From Eledone cirrhosa (taxonomy: Eukaryota), in assembly GCA_964016885.1 (NCBI GenBank), contig OZ024743.1, positions 189,906,001-189,970,000 of the forward strand: a stretch of 64,000 nt of DNA. Direction: 5' to 3'. The notes under the pieces are model-generated. The model had not been told where the DNA came from. It saw only the letters and a program-made list of their open reading frames with translations, and made no database searches. The translations under genes and the position numbers were made by a program. Positions 1 through 44,416 of the stretch are shown here, piece by piece; within the stretch, counting starts at the first letter, position 1; each line of letters begins with the position of its first letter.

Positions 1-3000
1 TATTAATTGTTCGTTGAATCCATACGTACATATATATATGTGTGCATGTATGTATATATATATACATACTACTGTACGTCTGTATACATATATGTATGTA
101 CGTATACATATTTATATTTAAGTAACAGCCGTACTAAGAGTGAGAAATGAAATTTTGGTTCATACTTTCCGTTTATCGTTTCGGTATGCCCGTCCGATTA
201 ACTCACTCGATATGCAAATTAGGCTGCTCATCCGTTAATATGCATAAGGAAAGTATATACTTTCAGACGTTCAATCATCTGGCAGGAAGGTATAATTTGC
301 TGACGATAGCTAATAAGCTTGAAACTAGTACAGCGTTCCTTTGTCAGTGTTGAATAAATGAGCAACGATGGTTGCTAAACACTGTACGGCTTAATTCGGG
401 ATGTTTGTTTACAAACACACCGAGCATTATAAAAAATGTTCGGTGAATCCATACGTATACATATATATATGTGTGCATGTATGTATATATATATACATAC
501 TACTGTACGTCTGTATACTTATATGTATGTACGTATACATACATATATTTAATTAACAGCCGTACTAAGAGTGAGAAATGAAATTCGTTTCATTTTTTCC
601 GTTTATCGTATCCGTACCCCGGCCGATTAACTCTCTCGGTATGCAAATTAGGCTGCTCAGCCGTTTATATGCATAAGCAAAATATATACTTTCAGACGTT
701 CAATCATCTAGCAGGAAGGTATACGTTGCTGACGATAGCTAATAAGCTTGAAACTAGTACAGCGTTCCTTTATCAGTGTTGAACAAATGAGCAACGATGG
801 TTCCTAGACACTGTACGGTCTAATACGGGATGTTTGTTTACAAACACACCGTGCATTATAATAAATGTTCGTTGAATCCATACGTACATATATATATGTG
901 TGTGCCTGTATGTATATATATATACATACTACTGTACGTCTGAATACATATATGTATGTACGTATACATACTTATATTTAAGTAACAGCCGTACTAAGAG
1001 TGGGAAAGGAAATTTCGTTTCATTTTTAACGTTTATCGTATTTGGTGCACGCGGCCGATTAACTCACTCGATATGCAAATTGGGCTACTCAGCCATTAAT
1101 ATGCATAAGGTAGTATATACGTTCAACAATCTGGCAGGAAGGTATGTTGCTGATGATAGCTAATAAGCTTGAATCTAGTACAGAGTTCCTTTGACAGTGT
1201 TGAACAAATGAGCAACGATGGTTGCTTAATTCGGGTTGTTTGTTTACAAACACACCGAGCATTATATTAAATCTTCGTTGAAACCATACATACATATATA
1301 CATGTGTGCATGTATGTATATATATATTCATACTACTGTACGTCTGTATACATATATGTATGTACGTATACATATTTATATTTAAGTAACAGCCGTACTA
1401 AGAGTGAGAAATGAAATTTCGGTTCATACTTTCCGTTTATCGTTTTCGGTATGCCCGTCCGATTAACACACTCGATATGCAAATTAGGCTGCTCAGCCGG
1501 TAATATGCATAAGGAAAGTATATACTTTCAGACGTTCAATCATCTGGCAGGAAGGTATAATTTGCTGACGATAGCTAATAAGCTTGACACTAGTACAGCG
1601 TTCCTTTGTCAGTGTTGAATAAATGAACAACGATGGTTGCTATACACTGTACGGCTTAATTCGGGATGTTAGTTTACAAATACACCGAGCATTATAAAAA
1701 AAATGTTCTGTGAATCCATACGTATATATATATATATGTGTGCCTGTATGTATATATATATATACATACTACTGTACGTCTGTATACTTATATGTATGTA
1801 GGTATACATACTTTTATTTAAGTAACAGCCGTACTAAGAGTGAGAAATGAAATTTCGTTTCATTTTTTCCGTATATCGTTTCCGTACCCCGGCCGATTAA
1901 CTCACTCGGTATGCAAATTAGGCTGCTCAGACGTTAATATGCATAGGGAAAGTATATACTTTCAGACGTTCAATCATCTGGCAGGAAGGTATACGTTGCT
2001 GACGATAGCTAATAAGCTTGAAACTAGTACAGCGTTCCTTTATGAGTGTTGAACGAATGAGCAACGATGGTTGCTAGACACTGTACGGCTTAATACGGGA
2101 TGTTTGTTTACAAATACACCGAGCATTATAAAAAAATGTTCTGTGAATCCATACGTATATATATATATGTGTGCATGTATGTATATATATATACATACTA
2201 CTGTACGTCTGTATAGTTATATGTATGTACGTATACATACTTATATTTAAGTAACAGCCGTACTAAGAGTGAGAAATGAAATTTCGTTTCATTTTTTTCG
2301 TATATCGTTTCCGTACCCCGGCCGATTAACTCACTCGGTTTGCAAATTAGGCTGCTCAGACGTTAATATGCATAAGGAAAGTATATACTTTCAGACGTTC
2401 AATCAACTGGCAGGAAGGTATACGTTGCTGACGATAGCTAATAAGCTTGAAACTAGTACAGCGTTCCTTTATGAGTGTTGAACGAATGATCAACGATGGT
2501 TGCTAGACACTGTACGGCTTAATACGGGATTTTTGTTTACAAACACACCGAGCATTATAATAAATGATCGGTGAATCCATACGTACATATATATGTGTGC
2601 ATGTATGTATATATATATACATACTACTCTACGTCTGTATACATATATGTATGTACGTATACATACTTATATTTAAGTAACAGCCATACTAAGAGTGAGA
2701 AATGAAATTTCGTTTCATTCTTTCCGTTTATCGTTTTCGGTACCCCGGCCGATTAACTCACTCGATATGCAAATTAGGCTGCTCATCCGTTAATATGCAT
2801 AAGGTAAGTATATACGTTCAACAATCTGGCAGGAAGGTATACGTTGCTGACGATAGCTAATAAGCTTGAAACTAGTACAGCGTTCCTTTGTCAGTGTTGA
2901 ACAAACGAGCAACTATGGTTGCTGGACACTACGGCTTAATACGGGATGTTTGTTCACAAACACACCGAGCATTATAATAAATGTTCGTTGAAACCTTACA

Positions 3001-3153
3001 TACATATATATATGTGTGCCTGTATGTATATATATATATATATACATACTACTGTACGTCTGTATACATATATGTATGTACGTGTACATACTTATATTTA
3101 AGTCACAGCCGTACTAAGTGTGGCAAATGAAATTTCTTTTTATTTTTCCGTTT
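1..3153 (+). repeat. Tandem array of ~425-bp hammerhead-ribozyme-containing units (putative non-LTR retrozyme); 7 HHR copies, runs off the left edge
   Basis: Unit recurs with CTGANGA cores at 300, 729, 1150, 1565, 1999, 2428, 2847 (spacing 415-434 bp); array ends at ttttccgttta followed by (TA)n; no consistent ORF. Confidence 0.92.
723..765 (+). ncRNA. Minimal type I hammerhead ribozyme (representative copy of the array unit)
   Basis: Stem I acgttg/cagcgt, core CTGACGA, stem II agct-aata-agct, GAAA, palindromic stem III ACTAGT, predicted GUA cleavage after 759; intact copies also with cores at 1999, 2428, 2847. Confidence 0.9.
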
Positions 3154-9122: not shown

Positions 9123-10023
9123 CGAGGTGTGTTAGAAAAGTTGAAGGACTGATGTCACAAAGATTTATTTCAAACCCAAACTTCACACTAAGAGTTTTCT
9201 CCTTCAAAGTAATCCCCCTGGAGTATGTGACTGTAATCTTAGCTCTCTGCAGCGATCAAACTTTTTTCTTCATAATTTTATATACATATCCTCTGTTTCA
9301 GGTCATCAAGCAATGAGCACAGAGCAACGAACAAACTTGAAAACTCCGTCAGAAGCACTGGGATTGCTGCGGCAAGTGTATGGAGATGAGACGATGTCAC
9401 GCTCATGTGTTCTTGAGTGGTGCAAGAGGTTTAAAGAAGAACGCGAGGACGTGGAAGATGATCCCAGGAGCGGAAGGCCCTTAACAACTAGGACTGAGGT
9501 CAACGTTGAGCGCATCAGGCAGATTGTGCGTAGCGATCGTCGGCTGACTGTTCGACTGATGGCAAATGAGCTGGGCATGAATCGGGACAGCGTCTGGAAG
9601 ATTCTCACTGAAGATTTGGACATGCGGAAAGTCTTCGCGAAGATGGTGCCAAAACTGCTGAACGATAACCAGAAGGGTCGACGCATGCAAGTGTGCCAGG
9701 ACATCCTCTGCGTCATGAAACCGAACCAGACTTGCTAGGGACAGTCATCACCGGTGATGATTCATGGATCTTCGAGTACGACCCGGAGGGGGCCCGTTTT
9801 GAAGACGAGGACGACATCAAAAATCAAAAAGGCCCTGACGACGGAACTGCGGAGGATCCCGGAAGAATCCTTCCAGGAGTGCATGCAAGCGTGGCAGAAA
9901 AGGGTGGAAAAGTGCATTAGACTCCAGGGGGATTACTTTGAAGGAGAAAACTTTTAGTGCGAAGTATGGGTTTGAAATAAATCTTTTGTGACATCAGTCC
10001 TGGAACTTTTCTGACACACCTCG
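9123..10023 (+). mobile_element. Mariner (Tc1/mariner) transposon, internally deleted, TA target duplication
   Basis: TIRs cgaggtgtg...cacacctcg flanked by TA; transposase motifs EDDPRSGRP, KMVPKLL, ITGDDSWIFEYDPE, GDYFEG; frameshifted and lacking most of the DDD domain. Confidence 0.95.
9313..9957 (+). pseudogene. Mariner transposase pseudogene
   Basis: ORFs 9313-9738, 9693-9920, 9754-9957 join into an HTH region, first catalytic D and C-terminus. Confidence 0.92.
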
Positions 10024-17274: not shown

Positions 17275-17318
<44 letters not shown>

Positions 17319-17470
17319 AGGGAGTGTAACTTGGAGTTACTGTAGGTTCACCCGATTGAGCACTCGATGTTTAGGTTCACTTCTGTGTCGAGGTGGAGAG
17401 CTAGACAGAGTGTATTATAGTGAAAAGACAACAAGGACGATTGGTTACTCCTTCATTACATTTATTGTTT

Positions 17471-17555
17471 GGTGACGCGTGTTTCGCCACTTACCAGCTC
17501 AAGGTTCGATCTGCATCGCTCTTACCCGACTCTATAATCTGCGGCTCGTCGGACC
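17471..17555 (-). ncRNA. HHR-like motif with non-canonical core CCGACGA (copies at 20555-20639 minus and 21477-21555 plus)
   Basis: ggt-CCGACGA-gccgc..~50 nt..gtggc-GAAA-CACGCG-TC-acc. Confidence 0.65.
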
Positions 17556-18315
17556 CCTTGTAATGCTAGTAGAAAATGAATACATGCTGTATGATAAAGT
17601 CAGAAGTTCATATGTTGGTCAATAAAGTTTGTTTTGATTGGTGGATTAGTTCAGAGGGATGTTTTTGCCTGTAGTGTATGTGAGATGGGTGGGTGTGGTG
17701 ATAAGATGGTGGTGACAGTCACAGGCTGGAGTGGGCGGTAGTGTGGGGGTGCTGGTTGTCGGTAGACAGATTGGCATGTAGCTGTGGTGTGGGTGTGGTG
17801 TTGTTGTTTGTGGTAAAGATGTGGTAGCGGTGTGCATGGTGATGTGATGAATGTGTTGGTGGTGTGATGAATGTGTTGGTGGTGTCAATTTCAATAAGGA
17901 GATACATACATAGACACACTTAGTCTGATAAATACGTTGTATACATACACATGTGTATATATATATATAGAGAGAGAGGTCCAGTGGAGACGGCGTTGTA
18001 CAAATAAATATACTTACACACACACACACACATGCGTTGTTTAGGGAGATGAGACAGGGTTGGTGATGTTGATGATTGTTGAAGTATGGAGATGTGCCTG
18101 GTAGTGGCGGTGGTAGTGGGAGCGACAAAATATTTACAGGATCGAATTTTACTATGGATTGCAGGTTAAAAAATGACATAGGGAACACAGGGAAAACAAG
18201 GTTGTGAATGAGGGATGGTGGACGTATAGCGATGTGTATGGTGGTGGTGGTGGTAGTGGTGGTGATGGAGTGATATGTTCGACATTATATTTACAGGATC
18301 GGATGTTACGATGGT

Positions 18316-20358
18316 TTACAAGGTAAAACCAGACTGAGAGGACAGATAGAAAACAATGGTACTGTGATGAGGGATGTATGGCGATGTGTCTGCTGTCCTA
18401 TTAGTGTGTGCTATCGTGTCGTCTAGATTTGGTGCTGTGGAGAAAGAGAATTTGACAGTGTGTCTATTGAAGTGCTTGTGGTATTTATGTGTGTGTGGGA
18501 AGGATTGTTCCAGGGCTCTGAAGAAGGTTCCCCGTATATTGGTGGCTACGTGTATAGAGTACGGGGCGTTGTACCATGTCACAGGTCTACTTCGGGCTTT
18601 ACGGTGTTTAGTGTGGTTGTGGTTTGGTTGTTGGGTGGGTGCGTTTTGGCCAGGCGTATTTGTCATAGGGTTTCCTACTATTCTATTGGCGTTGTGTCTC
18701 GGGTCTCTAATACTACGTATTCGCGTGCGATATTCAGAGTCCTTAATGGGTTGGAGAGTATAGCTTTATCTCGTGGGCAGTTGTGTGTAACGCTGCCTGT
18801 CGTGCCGGCTAAGGTGGGCCTTAGGTTAGTATTTGTTCTAGGTGTGGTGTCCTTGTTTATGTGCGTTTCTAAGGGTCTGAATAGGTTTAGCAGCGTTGCG
18901 GTTCTCGTTGGGTCATTGTAAGATATCTTCTCAATGTAACCAACCTTTTCAAGTGCGGAGTTATAGTATTCCGCGTGCTGGTTGAAGATAGTTCTATTTG
19001 CCGACAGGGTGGACAGTCTATAGGAAACGCTTTTCACTATTGAGTTACTTATGCTCCTAGGGTGGTTGGAGTGTCTGTTGACATATCTGAGGTTTTCATT
19101 TGGTTTATGGTAAGGGCGGTAGAGACCTGTGTCTAATTCTAAAGTGACACCTAAGAAGTTTACTGTCCTACTGTTGGGTTCTATTTCTACCGCTAATCCT
19201 TGGGTCATAAAGATATATCTAAGGCGTTTGTGTAGTCTATCTAATTGGCTATTATTGAGTCCACGGGCCATGAGTAGGGCGTCGTCACGGTACAAGCCAC
19301 CGCCCATGGTGGGGATCTCATCTATTAATATATTTAGGAGGTATAGGCCTACTATATCGGTAACCTGTGCGGAGTCGGTCGAGCCCCCTTTTAATGTCGA
19401 AGCTATCTGGTCTATTCTGTCATTCCCATAATTTACCGTCAAATTCTAGTAAAGTTTTCCTACTTACTAGTATGATGTCCACCTCCTTTCTGGTGAGGAT
19501 TGATCTGTTTATGGCTGAGATCAGTGCCTTGTTAAGGATGACTGGAGATATAGAGGCGTAGTAGTTCACAATGTCCATTTGGACTAATCGAATGTCCGAC
19601 TTGGTTTCAATGCCGGAGAACCAGTCGATTACCTCTTTTGTACACAACCAGAGGCTGAGTTTAGTCCTATTTCTAAGTTCTGGTATAACTCGGTCAATGA
19701 TAGATTTGCTTAGTCTACCTAGGTCTGATTTAGAGGGAGCTATGAGTCTGACCGGTAGTTTGGACTCGAAGTCCGGTTTGTGGTCTTTAATAAATATCCT
19801 CGGTGTCCCAGTTTTGTAGGATTGAGACCTGTCATCTATGCTCAGTTCCGTCATTATTGTTTTCGCCTGTTTGTTTATGTGTGCTAGATTTTCCCGTGTT
19901 GATGTTTTGTATATTTTAGCTATTTCGTTTGTGATGCATTTCTTGTATGTTTTGTACTCCAAATTATAGATGTTTCCTGTTTTATCGGCCGGAACAATGA
20001 TGCCAGGGCTTTTCCTGACCTCTTTTACAGTAGATGCAAGCCCAGACAAGAATGCAGTTCTGTCAGGGTTTCGTGGTGGTTTTCTGAATTTAATAGTCCG
20101 GACCATGGTAATAATCCTGTCCTCAAACTCCTGTAGGAGTGGGTTGTGCGGTGGGTTTTTTCTCGATTTGAATAGTTTTTTCATGTGGTTGGTGGAATTG
20201 TCGTCGGATCCAGGGGCCCTCCTGTTGTTGTAGTGGTAGGCCCTCCAACATATCCTTCTAATGAAATTGTTGGTCTGCATTAGTAAAAGGTTCATGTATA
20301 CATCATCCGAAGGTATAGGTATGTCTTTTAGGGAGGAAATGTTGTAGAACAATTCCAT
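18316..20358 (-). pseudogene. Penelope-like (Naiad-type) reverse transcriptase, frameshifted, GIY-YIG domain absent
   Basis: Motifs SSLKDIPIP, PADKTGN, KDHK, MDIVNYYASI, GLYRDD, VNFLGVT, PYHKPN, SNHP, WYNAPYS, HKHFNRHTVKFS. Confidence 0.93.
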
Positions 20359-21691
20359 GGTGTTCCAGGTAAGCGCTCGACTAAGTAAGGTGCTAAATAT
20401 CCAGGGAGTGTAACTTGGAGTTACTGTAGGTTCACCCGGGTGAGCACTCGATGTTTAGGTTCACTTCAGTGTCGAGGTGTAGAGCTAGACAGAGTGTATT
20501 ATAGTGAAAAGATAACAAGGACGATTGGTTGCGCCTTCATTACATTTATTGGTTGATGACGCGTGTTTCGCCACTGATCAGCTCAAGGTTCGACCTGTAT
20601 CGATCTTATCCAACTCTGTAATCTGCAGCTCGTCGGACCTCTTGTAATGCTAGTAGAACATTAACATGCTGTATGATAAAGTCAGAAGTACCATTGTGTT
20701 CTATCTGTCATCTCTTTCAGGTTTTACCTTGTAAAACCATCGTAACATCCGATCCTTTAAATATAATGTCGAGCATATCACTCCATCGCCACCACCACCA
20801 CCACCACCATCACCACCATCATACACATTGCTATACGTCCACCATCCCTCATTCACAACCTTGTTTTTCCCGTGTAATCAAATCGTAAAATTCGATCCTG
20901 TAAATATTTTGTCGCTCCCACCACCACCGCTTCCACCAGCCATATCTCCATACTTCAACAATCATCAACATCACTAACACATATCATCCCTCCCTAAACA
21001 ACGCATCTGTGTGTGTCTGTGTGTAAGTATATTTATTTGTACAACACCATCTCCACTGGTTTTCTCTCTATATTTATATATACACATGTGTATGTATACA
21101 ACGTATTTGTCAGACTAAGTGTGTCTATATATGTATCTCCTTATTGAAATTGACACCAACAATACATTCATCACATCACCATGCACACCGCTAGCTCATC
21201 TTTACCACAAACACCACCACCACACCCACACCACACACAAAAATCAGCCTCAGCTACATGCCAATCTGTCTACCAACAACCAGCACCCTGCCACCCACGC
21301 CCATTTTAGCCTGCGGCCGTCACCACCATCTTATCACCATACCCACCCCCACATGCTCTACAGGCAAAAACATCCCTATGAACTAATCCACCAATCAAAA
21401 CAAACTTTATTGACCAACATATGAACTTCTGACTTTATCATACAGCATGTATTCATTTTCTACTAGCATTACATGGGGTCCGACGAGCCGCAGATTAAAG
21501 AGTCGGGTAAGATCGATACAGATCGGAGCTGATCAGTGGAGAAACACGCGTCACCAACCAATAAATATAAGGAAGGAGTAACCAATCGTCATTGTTATCT
21601 TTTTACTATAAATATATATATATATATATATATATAAGCAGTAAACGGAAACATATACAGACACGCGCACGCACACTCATTCGCACATGCA

Positions 21692-26007: not shown

Positions 26008-26636
26008 GTTTCGGTATTAAACTGTAGCTGATACAAAACATCGGTGTCAGTTTCAATCCACTACTCCAAGACTTTAATCCATAGGCCAAAGCTTACAGTA
26101 GATGTTCCAATATCACATCTATCACATTTGAAAACAAGTTTATCGAAGTGCCGTAAAACGGTGGGGCTACACTGGTAGAAGCAAGAAATAGTTCGTTATA
26201 TTTACTATCTGACTTTTAAGTGGGAATTATGGATAAAATATAAAAGGCTCGTTTTTTTTAGATATGCATAAAAAAGAACAAACATTTCGATATATTATAT
26301 ACTTGGAAAGTTAGTCTATCGAATTCCTTTGATTGGCACCAGAGAAGTAAGATCATTTCTGTATTGTTTCTATGTCCGCAACTAGGTTACCTGGGTGGTA
26401 ATAGGGAAGTGTATGATGCTACCTAAGCTACTACGGTTCTAATGATATACTGGAGGCAAATCCATCACAAATATTTCAGAAAAGTTGTACCTTGGCAAAT
26501 AATCGTCCTTATGAAAATATGAATTAACAATGAAAATATCTGGAAATTTCATTACAACTTGTGTATCGATGGATGCGTATCACAAGTGAAAGAACACCTG
26601 ATTTTGACATTTATTTATTTTTCTGTGTAGAGGAAA

Positions 26637-27984
26637 CACGGGTGAAGTCCCAGAAGACTGGAGAAAAGGAGCGGTTGTCTGTATGTCCAAGAAGGGCAAC
26701 CTTGTCGATTGTGACAACTGGAGGGGAGTGACACTTCTCTCCATACCAGGGAAGGTCTATTGTCTAGTGATCCTGAACCGCATGCGTGGCATGGTAGACC
26801 GGCAACTGCGAGAACAACAGGCAGGGTTCCGACCAAAACGTTCCTGTGCAGAGCAGATCTTTACGCTACGCCGCATCATTGAGAGGTACAACGAATTCCA
26901 GAGACCCCTCGCCATCAGCTTCATCGATTTCTCCAAAGCATTCGATAGCATTCATCGACCGTCGCTCTGGAGCATCATGCATGAGTATAGTCTGCGCCAG
27001 AAAGTCATTTCGGCAATCAAACAGATTTACGCTAACTCCAAGAGCTGCATACGGACAGAGGATAGTTACAGTGACTGGTTTGAGGTGGTTACTGGCGTGC
27101 GTCAAGGTTGCTCGCTCTCTCCATTTCTCTTTGCCATAGCCATTGGCTGGGTACTGAGAAGAGCGTCTAAAGACCAGGGTATATCTTGGGTGGGAGAGCA
27201 AATGTTGTCTGACCTGGACTTTGCGGACGATACTGCTGCACTTGCAGAGAGCAAAGCTGACCTGCAAATCATTGTGAACAATATCAATGTCGAAGCAGGA
27301 AGCTTAGGTCTCAATATCAGTGCCAAGAAGACCAAAAGCATGTTATCTGAGACACACCCACCACCAACCAGTGTCTTCATTGAACAGGGGGAGGTGGAGA
27401 TAGTGGACAACTTCACCTACCTAGGAAGCTCCATTAACAATGAGGGCACCATGGACAGTGAACTGCATTTAACCAGCTTGACAAGATCTGGAAGAGCAGG
27501 AAGTTCACCCTCAAAACAAAGATGTGATTCTACAACAGCAATGTGCTGTCCACACTCTTGTACGGAAGTGAAACATGGCACCTTAAGACCAGCCAAGAGA
27601 AGAAGTTGGACGCATTCGATTCCAGATGTGCGAAAGATCCTGGAGATTAAATGGAGTGACCATGTAACAGACCAGGAAGTCAGGAACCGCACCAACCAGC
27701 AGCTAGTCTCTTCCACCATCTGCAAGCGACGCCTGGGCTGGTTTGGACACGCTTTGAGACTTCCCCCGGAGAGACTGGCGAACCAAGTACTTAAATGGAG
27801 CCCGCAGGGAAGCAGGCGGAGAGGGTGACCCAAAATGAACTGGCGCCAGACAGTTGAGTGGGACCTGCTAGCGACAAAGCGACAATGGCGGGACGCTGTG
27901 CAACTGGCTGCGTACCGAACGCGATGGAACACTATGATTGCCTCATGCGTCGCAAGACGCAGGAGCTTCTGAGTCTGAGTCTGA
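26637..27984 (+). mobile_element. 5'-truncated RTE-clade LINE with (TCTGAG)n tail and TSD gtagaggaaa
   Basis: ORF 26683-27828 with NWRGVTLLS, QAGFR, FIDFSKAFDS, GVRQGC, FADD; TSD at 26627-26636 and 27985-27994. Confidence 0.95.
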
Positions 27985-30327: not shown

Positions 30328-30669
30328 GAAAAACAGAAAAAAGAAAAAAGAAAAAAGAAAAAAGAAAAAAAGAAAAAAGAAAAAAGAAAAAAGAAAAAAG
30401 AAAAAAGAAAAAAAGAAAAAAGAAAAAAGAAAAAAAGAAAAAAAGAAAAAGGAAAAAGAAAAAAGAAAAAAAAAGAAAAAAGAAAAAAGAAAAAAGAAAA
30501 AAGAAAAAAAGAAAAGAAAAAAAGAAAAAAAGAAAAAAGAAAAAAGAAAAAAAGAAAAAAAGAAAAAAGAAAAAAGAAAAAAGAAAAAAGAAAAAAGAAA
30601 AAAGAAAAAAAGAAAAAAGAAAAAAGAAAAAAGAAAAAAGAAAAAAGAAAAAAGAAAAAAGAAAAGAAA
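30328..30669 (+). repeat. (GAAAAA)n polypurine simple repeat
   Basis: ~340 bp of G(A)4-8 units. Confidence 0.97.
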
Positions 30670-34546: not shown

Positions 34547-34580
<34 letters not shown>

Positions 34581-34583
<3 letters not shown>

Positions 34584-35020
34584 GTTTCATTTTTTCCGTT
34601 TATCGTTTTCGGTGCACCCGGCCCATTAACCCACTCGATATGCAAATTGGGCTACTCAGCCGTTAATATGCATAAGGTAAGTATATACGTTTAACAATCT
34701 GGCGGGAAGGTATACGTTGCTGACGATAGCTAATAAGCTTGAAACTAGTACAGCGTTCCTTTCTCAGTGTTGAACAAACGAGCAACGATGGTTGCTAGAC
34801 ACTACAGCTTAATACGTGATGTTTGTTTACAAATACACCGAGCATTATAATAAATGTTCGGTGAATCCATACGTGCATGTATATATGTGTGCATGTATGT
34901 ATATATATATATACATACTACTGTACGTCTGTATACATATATGTATGTACGTGTACATACTTATATTTAAGTAACAGCCGTACTAAGACTGGGAAATGAA
35001 ATTTCGTTTCAATTTTTCCG
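34581..35020 (+). mobile_element. Single copy of the ~425-bp HHR unit between (TA)n tracts
   Basis: Same unit as 1-3153; intact HHR core at 34720, predicted cleavage after 34750; ~18-nt terminal redundancy. Confidence 0.92.
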
Positions 35021-35122
<102 letters not shown>

Positions 35123-35650
35123 TATAGATAGATAGATAGATAGATATGTATATATATATATATGTGTGTGTGTGCAAAAAATAAACAAAACTAACAAACC
35201 AAAAGACAATGAAGAAATAACGCTTGATATAGTAAGAAAAGAATCTTTCCATTTCAGAAACTAGTCCTTCATCAGAAGATAGAATGATTGCAAATGCCAC
35301 TTCTTAACCACGTTGCATCAAAATAAATAAAAGAAGAGTAATATAGTATATATTGAATATTTTAACAAATCTATTAATATCGTTTCCAATGTGTAAAATG
35401 TTGTGTTGTTTTTATTCAATTTTTAAAGAAAGTCTTCATTATATAAAACACTTATTTTAGTTAAGTCTTGAAGTATTTTCCTAAATGCATCATTGATTGC
35501 AGATATAGCTGTCAAACTTGATTTAAGTGGTCCATCCTCAGTTTGGACTATAAATTTTGTAAATTGGAAAAAAAACCATATCCTAAAAGATAAATATTCT
35601 AACTTTACACTTAGATGAACTGGCTATCAAAACTGAATGTGATAATATAA

Positions 35651-37056: not shown

Positions 37057-37057
<1 letters not shown>

Positions 37058-40005
37058 GAGTGGGAAATGAAATTTTGTTTCATTTTTTCCGTTTATTGTT
37101 TTCGGTGCACCCGGCTGATTAACCCATTCGATATGCAAATTGGGCTACTCAGCCGTTAATATGCATAAGGTAAGTATATACGTTCAACAATCTGGCAGGA
37201 AGGTATACGTTGACGACGATAGCTAATAAGCTTGAAACTAGTACAGCGTTCCTTTGTCAGTGTTGAACAAACGAGCAACGATGGTTGCTAGACACTACGG
37301 CTTAATACGGGATTTTTGTTTACAAACACACCGAGCATTATAATAAATGTTCGGTGAATCCATACGTACATATATATATATGTGTGCATGTATGTATATA
37401 CATATACATACTACTGTACGTCTGTATGCATATATGTATGTACGTGTACATATTTATATTTAAGTAACAGCCGTACTAAGAGTGGGAAATGAAATATCGT
37501 TTCATTTTTTCCGTTTATCGTTTTCGCTGCACCCGGCCGATTAACCCACTCGATATTCAAATTGAGCTACTCAGCCGTTAATATGCATAAGGTAAGTATA
37601 TACGTTCAACAATCTGGCAGGAAGGTATACGTTGCTGACGATAGCTAATAAGCTTGAAACTAGTACAGCATTCCTTTGTCAGTGTTGAACAAACGAGCAA
37701 CGATGGTTGCTAGACACTGTACGGCTTAATACGCGATGTTTGTTTACAAACACACCGAGCATTATAATAAATGTTTGTTGAATCCATACGTACATGTATA
37801 TATGTGTGCATGTATGTATATATATATACATACTAATGTACGTCTGTATACATATATTTATATACGTGTACATACTTATATTTAAGTAACAGCCGTACTA
37901 AGAGTGGGAAATGAAATTTCGTTTCAATTTTTCCGTTTATCGTTTTCGGTGCACCCGGCCGATTAACCCACTCGATATGCAAATTGGGCTACTCAGCCGT
38001 TAATATGCATAAGTTAAGTATATACTTTCAGACGTTCAACAATCTGGCAGCAAGGTATACGTTGCTGACGATAGCTAATAAGCTTGAAACTAGTACAGCG
38101 TTCCTTTGTCAGTGTTCAATAAACGAGCAACGATAGTTGCTAGATACTGCGGCTTAATACGCGATGTTTGTTTACAAACACACCGAGCATTATAATAAAT
38201 GTTTGGTGAATCCATACGTACATATATATATGTGTGTGTAGCGGTTGTCTCCCTTGTTTTGATTGGGATCCTGACGGGAGGTGGAACCCTTTCTGCGACT
38301 TCCGGTCAGAGCCCTATAAAACTAACAACTTTAAGCTTCCTCCCTCTCTTTGCCTTTTCGGCACCAGGTCGAAGAGCCTCTCATTTGGCTCTGCCATTAA
38401 TTTGGCCAACTTGCTACATATTTTCATTTCGATTTTTATACACTAAAATTCTGGCGGGAGGTTATGTAGCGGTTGTCTCCCTTGTTTTGATTGGGATCCT
38501 GACGGGAGGTGGAACCCTTTCTGCGACTTCCGGTCAGAGCCCTATAAAACTAACAACTTTAAGCTTCCTCCCTCTCTTTGCCTTTTCGGCACCAGGTCGA
38601 AGAGCCTCTCATTTGGCTCTGCCATTAATTTGGCCAACAGGCGCCTGGCCTTCGCCAGGCGCCCTCTGCCAGCCGCGTTTGCCTGGCAATCAAAACGTTC
38701 ACACCAATAATTATGCTGATTGAAGCCTTTCTTTTTCATCATTGTCACTTTCAAAATTGCACTATCATTTTCTCGCGCGTTAGAAATATTATTTTTTTTC
38801 AACCTTGTATTGGCACGTGTAGGCAGCACAAATTCTCGATTCACAGTGATGTCTCTACTCACAGACAGCCGCACGCCAGAGATATCATTTATCACCAGGG
38901 ATTCTTCAGCCTTAAGCTATATCCTTCTATTTGCCGGTTTATAAATTTACAATGTAAATTTACAGTTGATAACCGCGCATTTATTAGGAATGCTTATTTC
39001 TCTGGTCGCTGGCCTCTTGACCCTTCCAGGTCAACGCATTCTCAACATCGACTGCTATTTCTAGCACTTTGCGCAACTCATTTTTTCTAAAAAAAATTTT
39101 TTTACTGTGAATTTAAACACCGAATACGCTCACTCAGCGAGACAACAGCAGCAGCAACAGCAATACATCAATACAGCTTCACCAAAGCCAGAGAATTCAT
39201 TTTTGCAGCACTCTTCCTGTGAGAAAATCCATTCGGAGGTTGGAAATTTGACGATATACCACAGAACAGAAACCACCTGCATTCATTCTCTGGAACACAC
39301 TTTCTTTCCTGCTGTCATGTGATTGCACACCTGTGAACTATATTTTGAACTTTGAGCTCTTCTATTACTTTTACTTTATTACATTGTATCTTTGGGTGAT
39401 GGATAGATGGATGTCCAGTCGTTCTCTGGCCAAGAGCGGTTGGCTACCTTGATATCTATCATTGATTTTTCCAGACATTCTTTTGTCGTAATTTTCATGC
39501 CTGTTACAACATTCTCGCCAACTTGCTACATATTTTCATTTCGATTTTTATACACTAAAATTCTGGCGGGAGGTTATGTAGCGGTTGTCTCCCTTGTTTT
39601 GATTAGGATCTAGACGGGAAGTGGAACCCTTTCTGCAACTTCCGGTCAGAGCCCTATAAAACTAACAACTTTAAGCTTCCTTTCTCTCTCTTTGCCTTTT
39701 CGGCACCAGGACAAGAGCCTCTCATTTGGCTCTGCCATTAATTTGGCCAACAGGCGCCTGGCCTTAGCCAGGCGCCCTCTGCCAGCCGCGTTTGCCTGGC
39801 AATCAAAACGGTAACTACTAACTTTGTTTCATTCTAACATCTATCTTTGACATGTCAAGTATTCTATCTACCGTTAATTAAATATTATATACACAAACCA
39901 TGTCTCGTTTTGTTACATTCATGCAACCCAGTATCCTCGCTATATGTGCATGTATGTATACATACTACTGTACGTCTGTATACATATATGTATGTACGTG
40001 TACTC
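37057..40005 (+). repeat. Three-unit array of the ~425-bp HHR unit, last unit split by an LTR element
   Basis: HHR cores at 37213 (mutated ACGACGA), 37635, 38065; unit sequence resumes at 39945. Confidence 0.9.
38237..39944 (+). mobile_element. Small rearranged non-autonomous LTR element (three LTR 5' ends), 4-bp TSD tgtg
   Basis: TGTAGC starts at 38237, 38465, 39577; last two preceded by purine tract ggcgggagg; end GCTATA; TATA-like ctataaaa; TSD 38233-38236 / 39945-39948. Confidence 0.7.
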
Positions 40006-40829: not shown

Positions 40830-41019
40830 AAAGGAGAGAGAATTAGGGTGTTTGCTCCACCATAGCTGTATGCATACAAGTATGTAAGGTTTGTATACTG
40901 AATAATATATATGTTTACGAATATACATTTGAAAGCCTTTAGCTATGAATTTTAAACATTGTATATTATTCGATATGTGTGTATATATATATATATATTA
41001 AAGAGTTAAACAAGATTCA

Positions 41020-42764
41020 ATGAGTACATCAAAGAATGAGTTTTACAGTAGATTGGAAGCACTCTACAGTCAATAATTTTCCAGAGTTATTAATATTAAT
41101 TAGATTGATTGCTCCATCCAAATCGGATATTGGAGTAATCAGTAAAAACCCACTCTTAAATTGAGATCTAATTTGAGCTTGTGGAAAGATACAAATGAAG
41201 TCATAGAATGGTACAGGAATATAGATAATAAGAAAAACCACAAATTCATCCAGATGTACATTACAAGCTACTATTCTTCCATAATACCTAACCTTCTAAA
41301 TAAGGCTCTTTCATATGCTTATAAGCATACTGATATAACTACGGATGAAATTGATATCATACTAACAGCCGGAAGAACTCTTATTAACTTCAACAATGAA
41401 TTTTGGACCCGCTCAGATAGAGATAGAAACTTTGATATCACTATGGGGGCATCCGATTCCGCGCAAATCACAGATCTTCTGGGAATTTTCATATTAAATA
41501 TGATAAATAGAAAACTGCCGGAGATTACCGGTGGTTTATATAGGGACGACATTTTATTTACGGTGGTCAAACACAACAATATAGAACTAAATAGAGTAAA
41601 GAAAAGTATAATAGAATTCTTTAAAATGTATGACCTTAAGTTGGAAGTAGAAAATGGTACCAAAATAGTTAATTTCCTAGATGTTACGTTTAACTTAAAC
41701 ACTGGCTTTTATTACCCTTTTCATAAGCCCAATGAAAACTTCAACTATGTTAGTAACCATTCCAATCACCCTAAATCTGTAAAAAAAAAAGCTATAGTAA
41801 ATAGTGTGCAAAAACGAATTAATAAAATATCAGCTAATAAAGCTATATTTGATGAAAACGCTGAATACTACAATAACGCGTTAAAAAGAGCAGGATATGT
41901 GAATAATATAGAATATGTAGATAATAATAATCCAAGTATTAATCTTGATAAAAATAATAACATATATAAGAGAAACTCTAATAATTATAATTCAAACACC
42001 CATACGCCAAATAAATTGAGGAAAAGAACTAGAACTAAATCAGTCATATAGTTCGTCCCCCCCCCCCTGCTTCGGTCGCAGTTAGAACACCAATTGCAAA
42101 ATTATTCTTTAATGCTTTGGACACCTCTTTCCCTACTCAACATAAATACCATTCCATTTTTAATAGACACACCATTAAATTCTCGTATTCTACAACTATG
42201 AACATGGCCCAAAACATTGCCAAATTAAACACTAAAATTCTAAAACAAAACCACCATAATGATCTTGATAATAGCATTAACATAAACGATACTAAACCAA
42301 AATGTAATTGTAGAAACAAAACTGACTGCCCTCTGCAAAATAATTGTCTAGATAGTAATTTGGTTTATAAAGGCACCGCAAAAACTGATCACAACACATA
42401 CAACTACATAGGATCGACTTCTTCTACATTTAAAGCCAGATTTGCGAACCATAAATGCTCATTCTCGAACTCCAAGAGGAAATCATCCACTTCTTTATCA
42501 CAGCTCTTATGGTCATTAAAAGAGTGGAATTTAAAATACTCCATTCTTTGGACAAAACTTCGGAATTGTGGAGTTTACCGCAACTCTAGTATATCAAATA
42601 ACTGCGCGCTCTGTACAATGAAGACCCTGTTGATTATTAATAACTATGAGACCCTAATTAACAAAAAAAGTGAATTATTCTCTAGTTGCCTTCATAAAGT
42701 TACGTCTACATTCTTAGCCTCCCACAAAACCAGAAAAAAAGAGGAAGAAACACTAAACCATTAA
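41020..42764 (+). pseudogene. 5'-truncated Penelope-like (Naiad-type) RT + GIY-YIG endonuclease, disrupted
   Basis: DITMGASDSAQITDL, GLYRDD, VNFLDVT, SNHP; then CNCR..CPL..CL, LVYK..YIG, RFANH, CALC, LINKKSE, CLH; stop and frameshift near 42050. Confidence 0.93.
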
Positions 42765-42916
42765 AAACTTGGTTTTCAGACGTAAATAACCAACAGCGAA
42801 AAACATTAATGGCATTTAATATTGCATTATCTTATAACTATCTATAGAAGAAATAACGCTCGATGAAGGACACTTATTCTATAACACGCTAACACGTTCA
42901 TATACATAACATATTG

Positions 42917-43292
42917 GGCGCCGTGCTTTCTAGCATAGTTACGTCCCTTTACAGTCTGAGTTCAAATCCAGCCGAGGTTAACTTTGTCTTTTATCCTTAA
43001 GGGGTCGATAAAATAAAGTACCAGTAATGTACTGGGTAATTGCTGCCCTTGTGCCTAAAGTAGAAACAATTATTAACTTTGATCCATACCATTATTTTTT
43101 AAGGGTGGTAGATTGGCAGAATCGGTAAAGCGTCAGACACCATGCTTTCTAGCATAGTTACGTCCCTTTACAGTCTGAGTTCAAATCCCACCGAGGTTAA
43201 CTTTGCCTTTCATCCTTACGGGGTCGATAAAATAAAGTACCAGTAATGTACTGAGTAATTGCTGTCCTTGTGCCTAAAGTAGAAACAATTAT
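42917..43292 (+). mobile_element. Two tandem SINE family 1 copies
   Basis: 42917-43073 (5' truncated) and 43102-43292. Confidence 0.88.
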
Positions 43293-44316
43293 TTCTCTAT
43301 CTTTATTTTCCTATCTAAGTTTTAAATTTTAGTTTAAATATCCAACCCGTATATTTTTACGGAACTTATTTTTAACTGTGAATCATTCATGTGTTTACAT
43401 TTTTTTAAATTATAGTATGTATGTATTTAACTGTAACACGTTGAAATCTATTATATAAGATTACCTAAAGTATACTGTATCACTAATACTTAATATATAT
43501 CTATATATACCTCTCTCTATCTCTCTATACATACTTTTTAGATAACTTCTCTAAATTTTTAGATTATTATTTATTTTGAACTGTGAATAATTCATGCATT
43601 TACACCCTTTTATATTCGTTATCATTTACCTAAAATATACTGGCTCATTAATATATCTCTACATACCTAATCATTATTTAAATTTTTCTAACAATAAGTA
43701 CTTCATAAGCTTTACATACCGAAAATGTTGACATTTTTATAGGTAATCTTCGTTAAAGATTACATTTAGGAAATATTTCAACAGTGTAAATTTTCCTTTC
43801 GCTGGCCAGGTTAAATCCTTTAAATTTTATCCTCATAAAATTCAGAAGTTTAGAAATGTTAACACACTTATAGAATTTATAAAATTAATAAATATAAATA
43901 ACCAGCAACTTTTAAAAGAAAACCTAAAATCTTGATTCTTCACCCTTAAAATAACGTAAATTAAATATTTTGAAACTTAACCGTTTAGCTTTTTGGAAAA
44001 AAATCTCTTTCTGCATATATTACTCCCCTTTATCTGTTCCCTCTCTTTAAATCCTCTTTCAGCGGACTTCATAGACAGTTATAATTCATGAGATGTTTTC
44101 CTAGATAACCATAACTTGTAGTATCCTACATTTTAAAGATCTCTATAGCTGTCACATTAACCAACGTTTTTTCTTACTCACACATTCTCTATTGAATTTT
44201 ACGTTTTCGCATTTTCTCATTATTAGGGTATACATGTTAAGTTTTCTCTTAGGTTAATCACTACCTTGATTAAATCTTAACCATTTAACATCTCAGGGTA
44301 TGTCATGTATCATTAT

Positions 44317-44369
44317 ATTTTGTCTGATGAGGACGTACTGTTGTACCTCTGAAATATGTATAATAAAAT
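44317..44369 (+). ncRNA. Minimal type I hammerhead ribozyme
   Basis: attttgt-CTGATGA-ggacgtac-tgtt-gtacctct-GAAA-TATGTA-TA-ataaaat, ~30 bp upstream of (TA)n. Confidence 0.75.
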
Positions 44370-44416
44370 TTAATTGATCAAAAGAACATCTATTTTAATA
44401 TATATATATATATATA

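Follow-up and report, generated by a model that had tools for sequence, protein, structure and literature searches.

The 440-nt copy at 34581-35020 of the window (the whole 64,000-nt stretch of Eledone cirrhosa DNA that was analysed) belongs to a family that, by every sequence feature tested, is an animal non-LTR retrozyme. Arms of this family end at two fixed 3' sites, here called A and B, and where two arms lie head to head they almost always carry one end of each kind. As the same two-end, two-arm, (TA)n footprint is left by Penelope elements of this genome, a helper of the Penelope class is well supported. More specifically we favour, at a probability of about 65%, a reading in which a Penelope-like enzyme, probably of the Hydra type, primes on both ends of a break in (TA)n, one end at each site, on an RNA circle that is probably monomeric.

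The retrozyme unit and its copies in the window

Unit length ranges from 422 to 456 nt, and monomers as well as tandem arrays occur at many loci. No open reading frame (ORF) of at least 100 aa was found on the sense strand of the copy at 34581-35020, and none combining a reverse transcriptase (RT) with GIY-YIG in the 422-nt unit, which resembles a Penelope dependant and not an autonomous Penelope-like element. Neither an LTR nor, by eye, a PBS or PPT was found in the unit, whose ends are a variable 5' end and two fixed 3' ends set in microsatellites. A type I hammerhead motif lies at 34714..34756 on the plus strand with predicted cleavage after 34750, and we number the unit from the first base past this site (c1). 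The motif comprises stem I acgttg/cagcgt, the core segments CTGACGA and GAAAC, stem II agc/gct with a U-U at its base, and a stem III formed by the palindrome ACTAGT (ACUAGU), a design suited to cleavage as a dimer, as in amphibian retrozymes (PMC7229834). Genome-wide (3.0 Gb), the exact 31-nt core has 10,046 matches and the 30-nt motif preceding site A has 32,658. Each of the 6 positions of stem I is paired in 93-98% of 239 distinct instances, with position 3 pairing as U-G in 149, G-U in 42 and A-U in 35; since the core was used to select the instances, its own conservation is no independent test. An Rfam search of the copy returned no hammerhead at the gathering score.

An older homologous retrozyme family (L288:1850-6345 and L312-L340) has the hammerhead CTGATGA agggtaatgaccca GAAACATGTT. 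It is ~77% identical to the unit over the aligned part, keeps the hammerhead design with changed stems, and ends at a place homologous to site B; at L288 a young copy is inserted in an internal TA run of this older family. Another tandem family, with a unit of ~270 nt by eye, occupies L221:6140-8001 (G000:C1:5544140-5546000), where it adjoins (TA)n and has a short inverted arm; its minus strand contains CTGAAGA..taataa..GAAACGCGTA, which resembles a hammerhead core.

The copy at 34581-35020 (plus strand) is a B-ended single arm without a visible A arm and has its 5' stop at c253. It exceeds the 422-nt unit by 18 nt; its first bases are ttcgtttcattttttccg and its last are ttcgtttcaatttttccg. 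These two 18-nt ends differ at 1 of 18 positions, where 3 of the 127 corresponding motifs in the sampled arms carry the A allele. Its nearest relatives elsewhere are 97% identical. The (TA)n run on its 5' side (34550..34580, with (TA)16 at 34550-34581) is likely one half of the insertion target, and on its 3' side (TA)n is followed by (GA)n and (GATA)n (35021..35146). The initial annotation had read the element as one unit plus ~18 nt between (TA)n runs, with neither end at the ribozyme cleavage site, and on these points it was right; the terminal redundancy that it pointed out is not a defined structure but a variable 5' stop. A B-primed arm would have been copied once round plus 18 nt and then joined to (TA)n. 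The flanks matched nothing in 1.39 Mb of fetched loci, the check on shared flanks that had been proposed, and are single-copy by contig depth (~10, versus 1e5-1e6 for the unit); segmental duplication of this copy is therefore refuted. For the empty allele, no contig joint across the element was found, contigs breaking at repeats.

The 3' part of a ~13-kb array (~31 units) occupies 1..3150 on the plus strand, extends ~10 kb upstream of the window and ends at site B with ttttccg (3144-3150) followed by tttatatata, so that the 3' end is indeed shared with the single copy, as had been claimed. Shared variants recur at every third unit, which shows that this array is not a single copying product; it is older and has a three-unit higher-order structure. 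Variable 5' starts, likewise claimed, are exemplified by a 2.8-unit copy after (TA)n at 37057..38236 (plus strand), which stops at c236, 17 nt further 5' than the copy at 34581-35020, and which has no native 3' end, being cut at 38236 by an unrelated repeat. That repeat (38237-38700) starts tgtagcggttgtctccc, a sequence with two occurrences ~230 nt apart, and looks LTR-like by eye. A 61-nt unit fragment (c146-206) lies at 39943..40003 on the plus strand. The window also holds a (GAAAAAA)n tract of ~340 nt (30328-30669), a LINE-type RT fragment (PF00078) at 26608-27828 and a mariner-like transposase fragment at 9145-9738.

Two fixed 3' ends and head-to-head pairs

Ends were mapped in three sets of loci, each drawn from the first 100 matches of one query: the exact core (79 loci once overlaps had been taken out), the 30-nt motif before site A (33 loci, from the part of the matches that was fetched) and a young-subfamily motif (37 loci). 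Contig C1 holds all sampled loci. Any arm that reached the edge of its locus was discarded, and the pieces of arms interrupted by an internal microsatellite were merged before counting. The 3' ends of the resulting 262 arms fall at site A in 99 cases (c205-223, mode 216), at site B in 120 (c259-278, mode 275) and elsewhere in 43. Thus 219 of the 262 end in windows that cover 39 of 422 positions (9.2% expected); these windows were chosen with the first set already in view, and the second and third sets repeat the pattern. Only 18 of the 262 5' ends lie inside either window.

Sites A and B are 59 nt apart. Site A (c213-216) is held in the loop of a computed hairpin, ACTTA-TATT-TAAGT, at 34959..34972 on the plus strand; the copy at 34581-35020 runs through it, and contig loose ends with (TA)n are found behind 34966. 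Site B (c269-275) lies just 3' of the computed hairpin ggaaatgaaa/tttcatttttcc (34992..35025, plus strand). The initial annotation had placed a single fixed start next to this aaatgaaa/tttcattt hairpin: the endpoint plot and flank table proposed for checking it gave 3' ends that are far from random and a fixed site where it was expected, B, together with a second one, A, in the loop of the other hairpin. Exact junctions with (TA)n number 3,459 genome-wide for B and 1,430 for A, the latter from a pattern that includes a subfamily allele and is not comparable with the B count. The motif just before site A (window 37416-37459) is common to contigs of another organism, where both flanks are unrelated; it is perhaps a recognition motif kept across families.

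The supposed (TA)n target preference is borne out, (TA)4 or more being present within 40 nt of 194 of the 219 A/B ends versus 2,458 of 19,396 random flank positions (12.7%). Both sites carry TA-like bases matching the target, and the 3' ends are strand-polar and keep away from c120-200, where the unit is richest in TA. Synthesis of the (TA)n by the enzyme was considered and is not supported: 3 B ends run into (CT)n, others continue, in a shifted register, as (TTTA)n or simple AT-rich DNA, and the insertion at L288 lies in an older 14-nt TA run, true empty sites being too few. With regard to 5' ends, 20 stops fall at c248-277 versus 10 expected (p 0.004 for one of six windows, chosen post hoc), and 8 versus ~6 expected in the two sets not selected by the core, a weak hint that copying may halt where it runs into its own cDNA or into the hairpin. 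The stop of the copy at 34581-35020, c253, is inside this post hoc zone.

We found 82 head-to-head inverted pairs, of which 59 are A+B, none A+A and none B+B, the other 23 having at least one unclassed end; dropping two duplicated pairs at L273 leaves 57 A+B pairs. Outside the three sets we met one B+B pair (L007, from a best-hit set) and one A+A pair (L341, from the A-junction list), and the one-of-each rule is accordingly near-absolute, not absolute. Many insertions consist of a single arm, B-ended in 51 cases and A-ended in 31; of 64 such singles inspected, 22 are bordered by (TA)n on the 5' side as well. At L273 (G000:C1:19618400-19625100) two different two-armed insertions have each been duplicated in full; the inner junctions are identical, and the (TA)n flanks apparently mediated the duplication. 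The two-armed insertion at L221:2408-6070 has the same 27 nt of a Penelope ORF beyond both ends in inverted orientation and looks as if inserted in the tip of a palindrome, the sole such case in 145 insertions checked.

Template and enzyme

The main template was not a cut linear monomer, since stops do not pile up around c1 (4 in 2,326 nt at risk, with ~5 expected, and 3 in 1,282 nt in the two sets not selected by the core) and 105 of the 219 A/B arms exceed 440 nt, which also upholds the earlier proposal of copying past one unit length. We compared haplotypes at 11 polymorphic sites, using only arms at least ~90% identical to the unit. Of 215 comparisons between successive units 12 show a difference, as do 5 of 132 between the two arms of an insertion, versus 36.6% between loci and with a background of 2.2-2.6%; the template within one insertion was usually one haplotype. 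Nearest-neighbour identity was no guide here, the divergence inside an insertion being no larger than that from the closest other locus for only 18 of 47 arms and 14 of 40 pairs. At L274 all units of both arms that cover the site carry one variant, and the 8 matches of the haplotype in the genome all fall at the L274 locus itself, with no source array in the assembly. Of 11 rare variants common to all passes, 10 arise at A/T, versus 107 of 334 for pass-specific variants (p 1e-4), and scars of RNA editing were not evident among the rare shared variants, with A>G versus T>C at only 4 to 2. The L308 haplotype was rejected as private, being found at 10 loci, among which are several homogeneous arrays that might serve as linear templates. 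Mosaic insertions occur at L006, L064, L271 and L303, and variants are shared between alternate units at L285 and L294; the two- and three-unit patterns of L285, L294 and the big array fit multimer templates or later unequal exchange.

The strongest competitor of the circle retains two-site priming by a Penelope enzyme and supplies as template an uncleaved linear multimer from a homogeneous source array, the uniformity of insertions coming from the source and from later conversion. Haplotypes shared across homogeneous arrays speak for such a multimer (L117, L118 and L119 are nearly identical, and the L308 haplotype recurs as described), as do the mosaic and alternate-unit arrays, the weakness of stem III and the finding that a Poseidon element in vitro mainly used unprocessed RNA as its substrate (PMC11167929), but the L274 variant stands in both arms without a source array in the assembly, the rare all-pass variants differ in spectrum from pass-specific ones (n = 11), and related retrozymes are mostly circular in vivo (PMC7229834). 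We regard the linear multimer as rather unlikely, if well worth keeping in mind, and from these sequence patterns we lean to a circle at somewhat better than two to one. The circular or multimeric template of the initial annotation is thus upheld as far as read-through of the cleavage site and a single haplotype in most insertions are concerned, with its circular form now favoured.

Turning to the enzyme, a decayed, two-armed Penelope-like element at 17316..21611 (minus strand) is of the Hydra type by comparison of its motifs with those given in PMC8557442; its direct arm ends at a downstream site and its inverted arm ~105 nt earlier at an upstream site, both in (TA)n. Penelope-like sequence of a second family, also of the Hydra type, lies at 40992..44396 (plus strand), with the inverted arm ending at a fixed site, 40992, and the direct arm at ~44380, again both in (TA)n, and we infer that the two ends come from one insertion. 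The terminal repeat of this second family contains a hammerhead-like CTGATGAGGACGTACTG..CTGAAA at window 44324-44360, seen at several loci. In three Penelope families of the genome the two ends are ~105, 98 and 70 nt apart and lie nearly always in (TA)n, a few in (TC)n, and A+B pairs of Penelope elements were found at L238, at L142 and in this window. These A+B two-armed insertions, shared with the retrozyme, are much stronger evidence for a helper of the Penelope class than the shared (TA)n from which the initial annotation pointed to the Penelope elements of this window, here no more than candidate helpers.

Intact Hydra-type ORFs of 877-916 codons are present at L171, L172, L173, L175 and L176, and their repeats are 97-100% identical (99.6-100% in some families), which suggests that these elements were likely active recently. 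The L172 ORF, from a family related to those with mapped ends, has RWK, DKT, LYRDD and VY..YIG, the Hydra-clade motifs described in PMC8557442, and its neighbours in the Atlas carry GIY-YIG/HTH_animal; a C-terminal GIY-YIG, the RWK and DKT motifs and (TA)n targets are all present in the candidate helpers (Hydra clade). A Pfam search of the Penelope ORFs gave no relevant match, and a PDB sequence search with the L172 ORF gave none. The unit, compared by blastn with 70 fetched Penelope loci, some of them redundant, matched only nested retrozyme copies; these loci represent the families reached by two protein queries among tens of thousands of candidates. The retrozyme tail aligned with four Penelope end regions no better than shuffles did. 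None of 29 loci of the older relative leads into a Penelope ORF, and 2 have unrelated ORF pieces nearby.

Copying of the RNA by a LINE or another non-Penelope RT, with inversions made by L1-style twin priming, appears very improbable. In its favour, the window contains a LINE-type RT (26608-27828, PF00078) and no sequence link to Penelope was found among the loci fetched, but both arms have a fixed 3' end, one at each site, and overlap in sequence, poly(A) and a 3' tail repeat are absent, arms pass through the start sites, and the pattern equals that of the Penelope families in the genome. L1 twin priming leaves one fixed end and non-overlapping parts. Spread of plain satellite DNA by segmental duplication, unequal crossover or reinsertion of circular DNA, with ends set by TA-like recombination, is refuted as the main route and scarcely credible in general, for local duplications and higher-order repeats after insertion (L273, the big array) and the short TA-like bases at A and B would suit it, but the 3' ends are strand-polar and avoid c120-200, A+B pairing stands at 59 to 0, and the flanks of 34581-35020 are unmatched in the 1.39 Mb of fetched loci and single-copy by contig depth.

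In the favoured reading of Penelope priming on a circle, the unit would be transcribed, its RNA would cleave itself as a dimer through the palindromic stem III, and the cleaved monomer would be ligated to a circle. The Penelope-like, probably Hydra-type, enzyme would make a double-strand cut in a (TA)n run, and reverse transcription would be primed from both DNA ends, one at A and one at B, aided by UAU microhomology. Copying would stop at a constant rate of about 0.22 per 100 nt, and the two cDNAs would be joined head to head. It is tempting to speculate, though only tentatively, that one Penelope dimer grips a single RNA circle at the two sites and that both RTs roll round it; arrays would then be born whole, with up to a dozen units per arm, and the retrozyme would need RNA shape, not sequence kinship. 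The family offers thousands of natural products of a 422-nt substrate with two mapped start sites and very young identical copies, and with intact Hydra-type ORFs in the same genome both retrozyme spread and the inverted, tailed insertions of Penelope become testable in vitro. It also points to a possible enzyme that writes tandem DNA from an RNA circle into (TA)n.

Comparison with known systems

Circle-templated copying, with Penelope elements as a strong candidate, was proposed by Cervera and de la Pena (2020; PMC7229834), and Li, Clavereau and Pollet (2026; bioRxiv 10.64898/2026.07.22.740005) describe Penelope co-occurrence and terminal-repeat trees and call the mechanism open. Like the metazoan non-LTR retrozymes of these two papers, the present family has short non-coding units (150-450 nt in the papers) with one type I hammerhead each, exists as monomers and arrays, is low in GC, lacks LTR, PBS and PPT, has thousands of copies and co-occurs with Penelope elements. 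Axolotl offers close parallels to the ribozyme, the U-U at the base of stem II being as in HHR_Amex2 and the palindromic stem III as in HHR_Amex1. In the accessible text of those papers the case is built on co-occurrence and terminal-repeat similarity and no ends are mapped, whereas here two 3' ends are mapped and A+B insertions are counted; in contrast to the terminal-repeat similarity reported there, the unit showed no similarity to any of the Penelope terminal repeats fetched here. The literature searched, the main texts of openly available papers, yielded no end mapping of retrozymes and no such two-end footprint for a retrozyme.

For Penelope elements, Craig et al. (2021; PMC8557442) describe as typical an inverted truncated arm and a 30-40 bp tail that is often at one end only. 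In vitro work on the Poseidon element PAc by Frangieh et al. (2024; PMC11167929) identified the tail as the sequence that separates two internal start sites; both strands of the DNA were cut and extended, and the enzyme is predicted to act as a dimer. Priming in that system took place without homology to the cut DNA, in contrast to the retrozyme, where sites A and B are both TA-like. With the EN+ Penelope elements of the Hydra clade (PMC8557442) and with Poseidon PAc (PMC11167929) the retrozyme shares an inverted 5'-truncated arm, a tail at one end, partial tandems, a pair of internal start sites that lie within or close to a stem-loop downstream of the hammerhead, and AT-rich or (TA)n targets. 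It differs from them in a unit without an ORF and in the many whole passes of one short unit, and its tail of 59 nt compares with 30-40 in the papers and ~70-105 in the three Penelope families here. Chlamys MRC1, as described in PMC8557442, is likewise a non-coding Penelope dependant with multicopy head-to-tail insertions; the Chlamys non-autonomous elements of that paper resemble their helpers at the 3' end and are, for the most part, without a canonical hammerhead, whereas the retrozyme unit has one.
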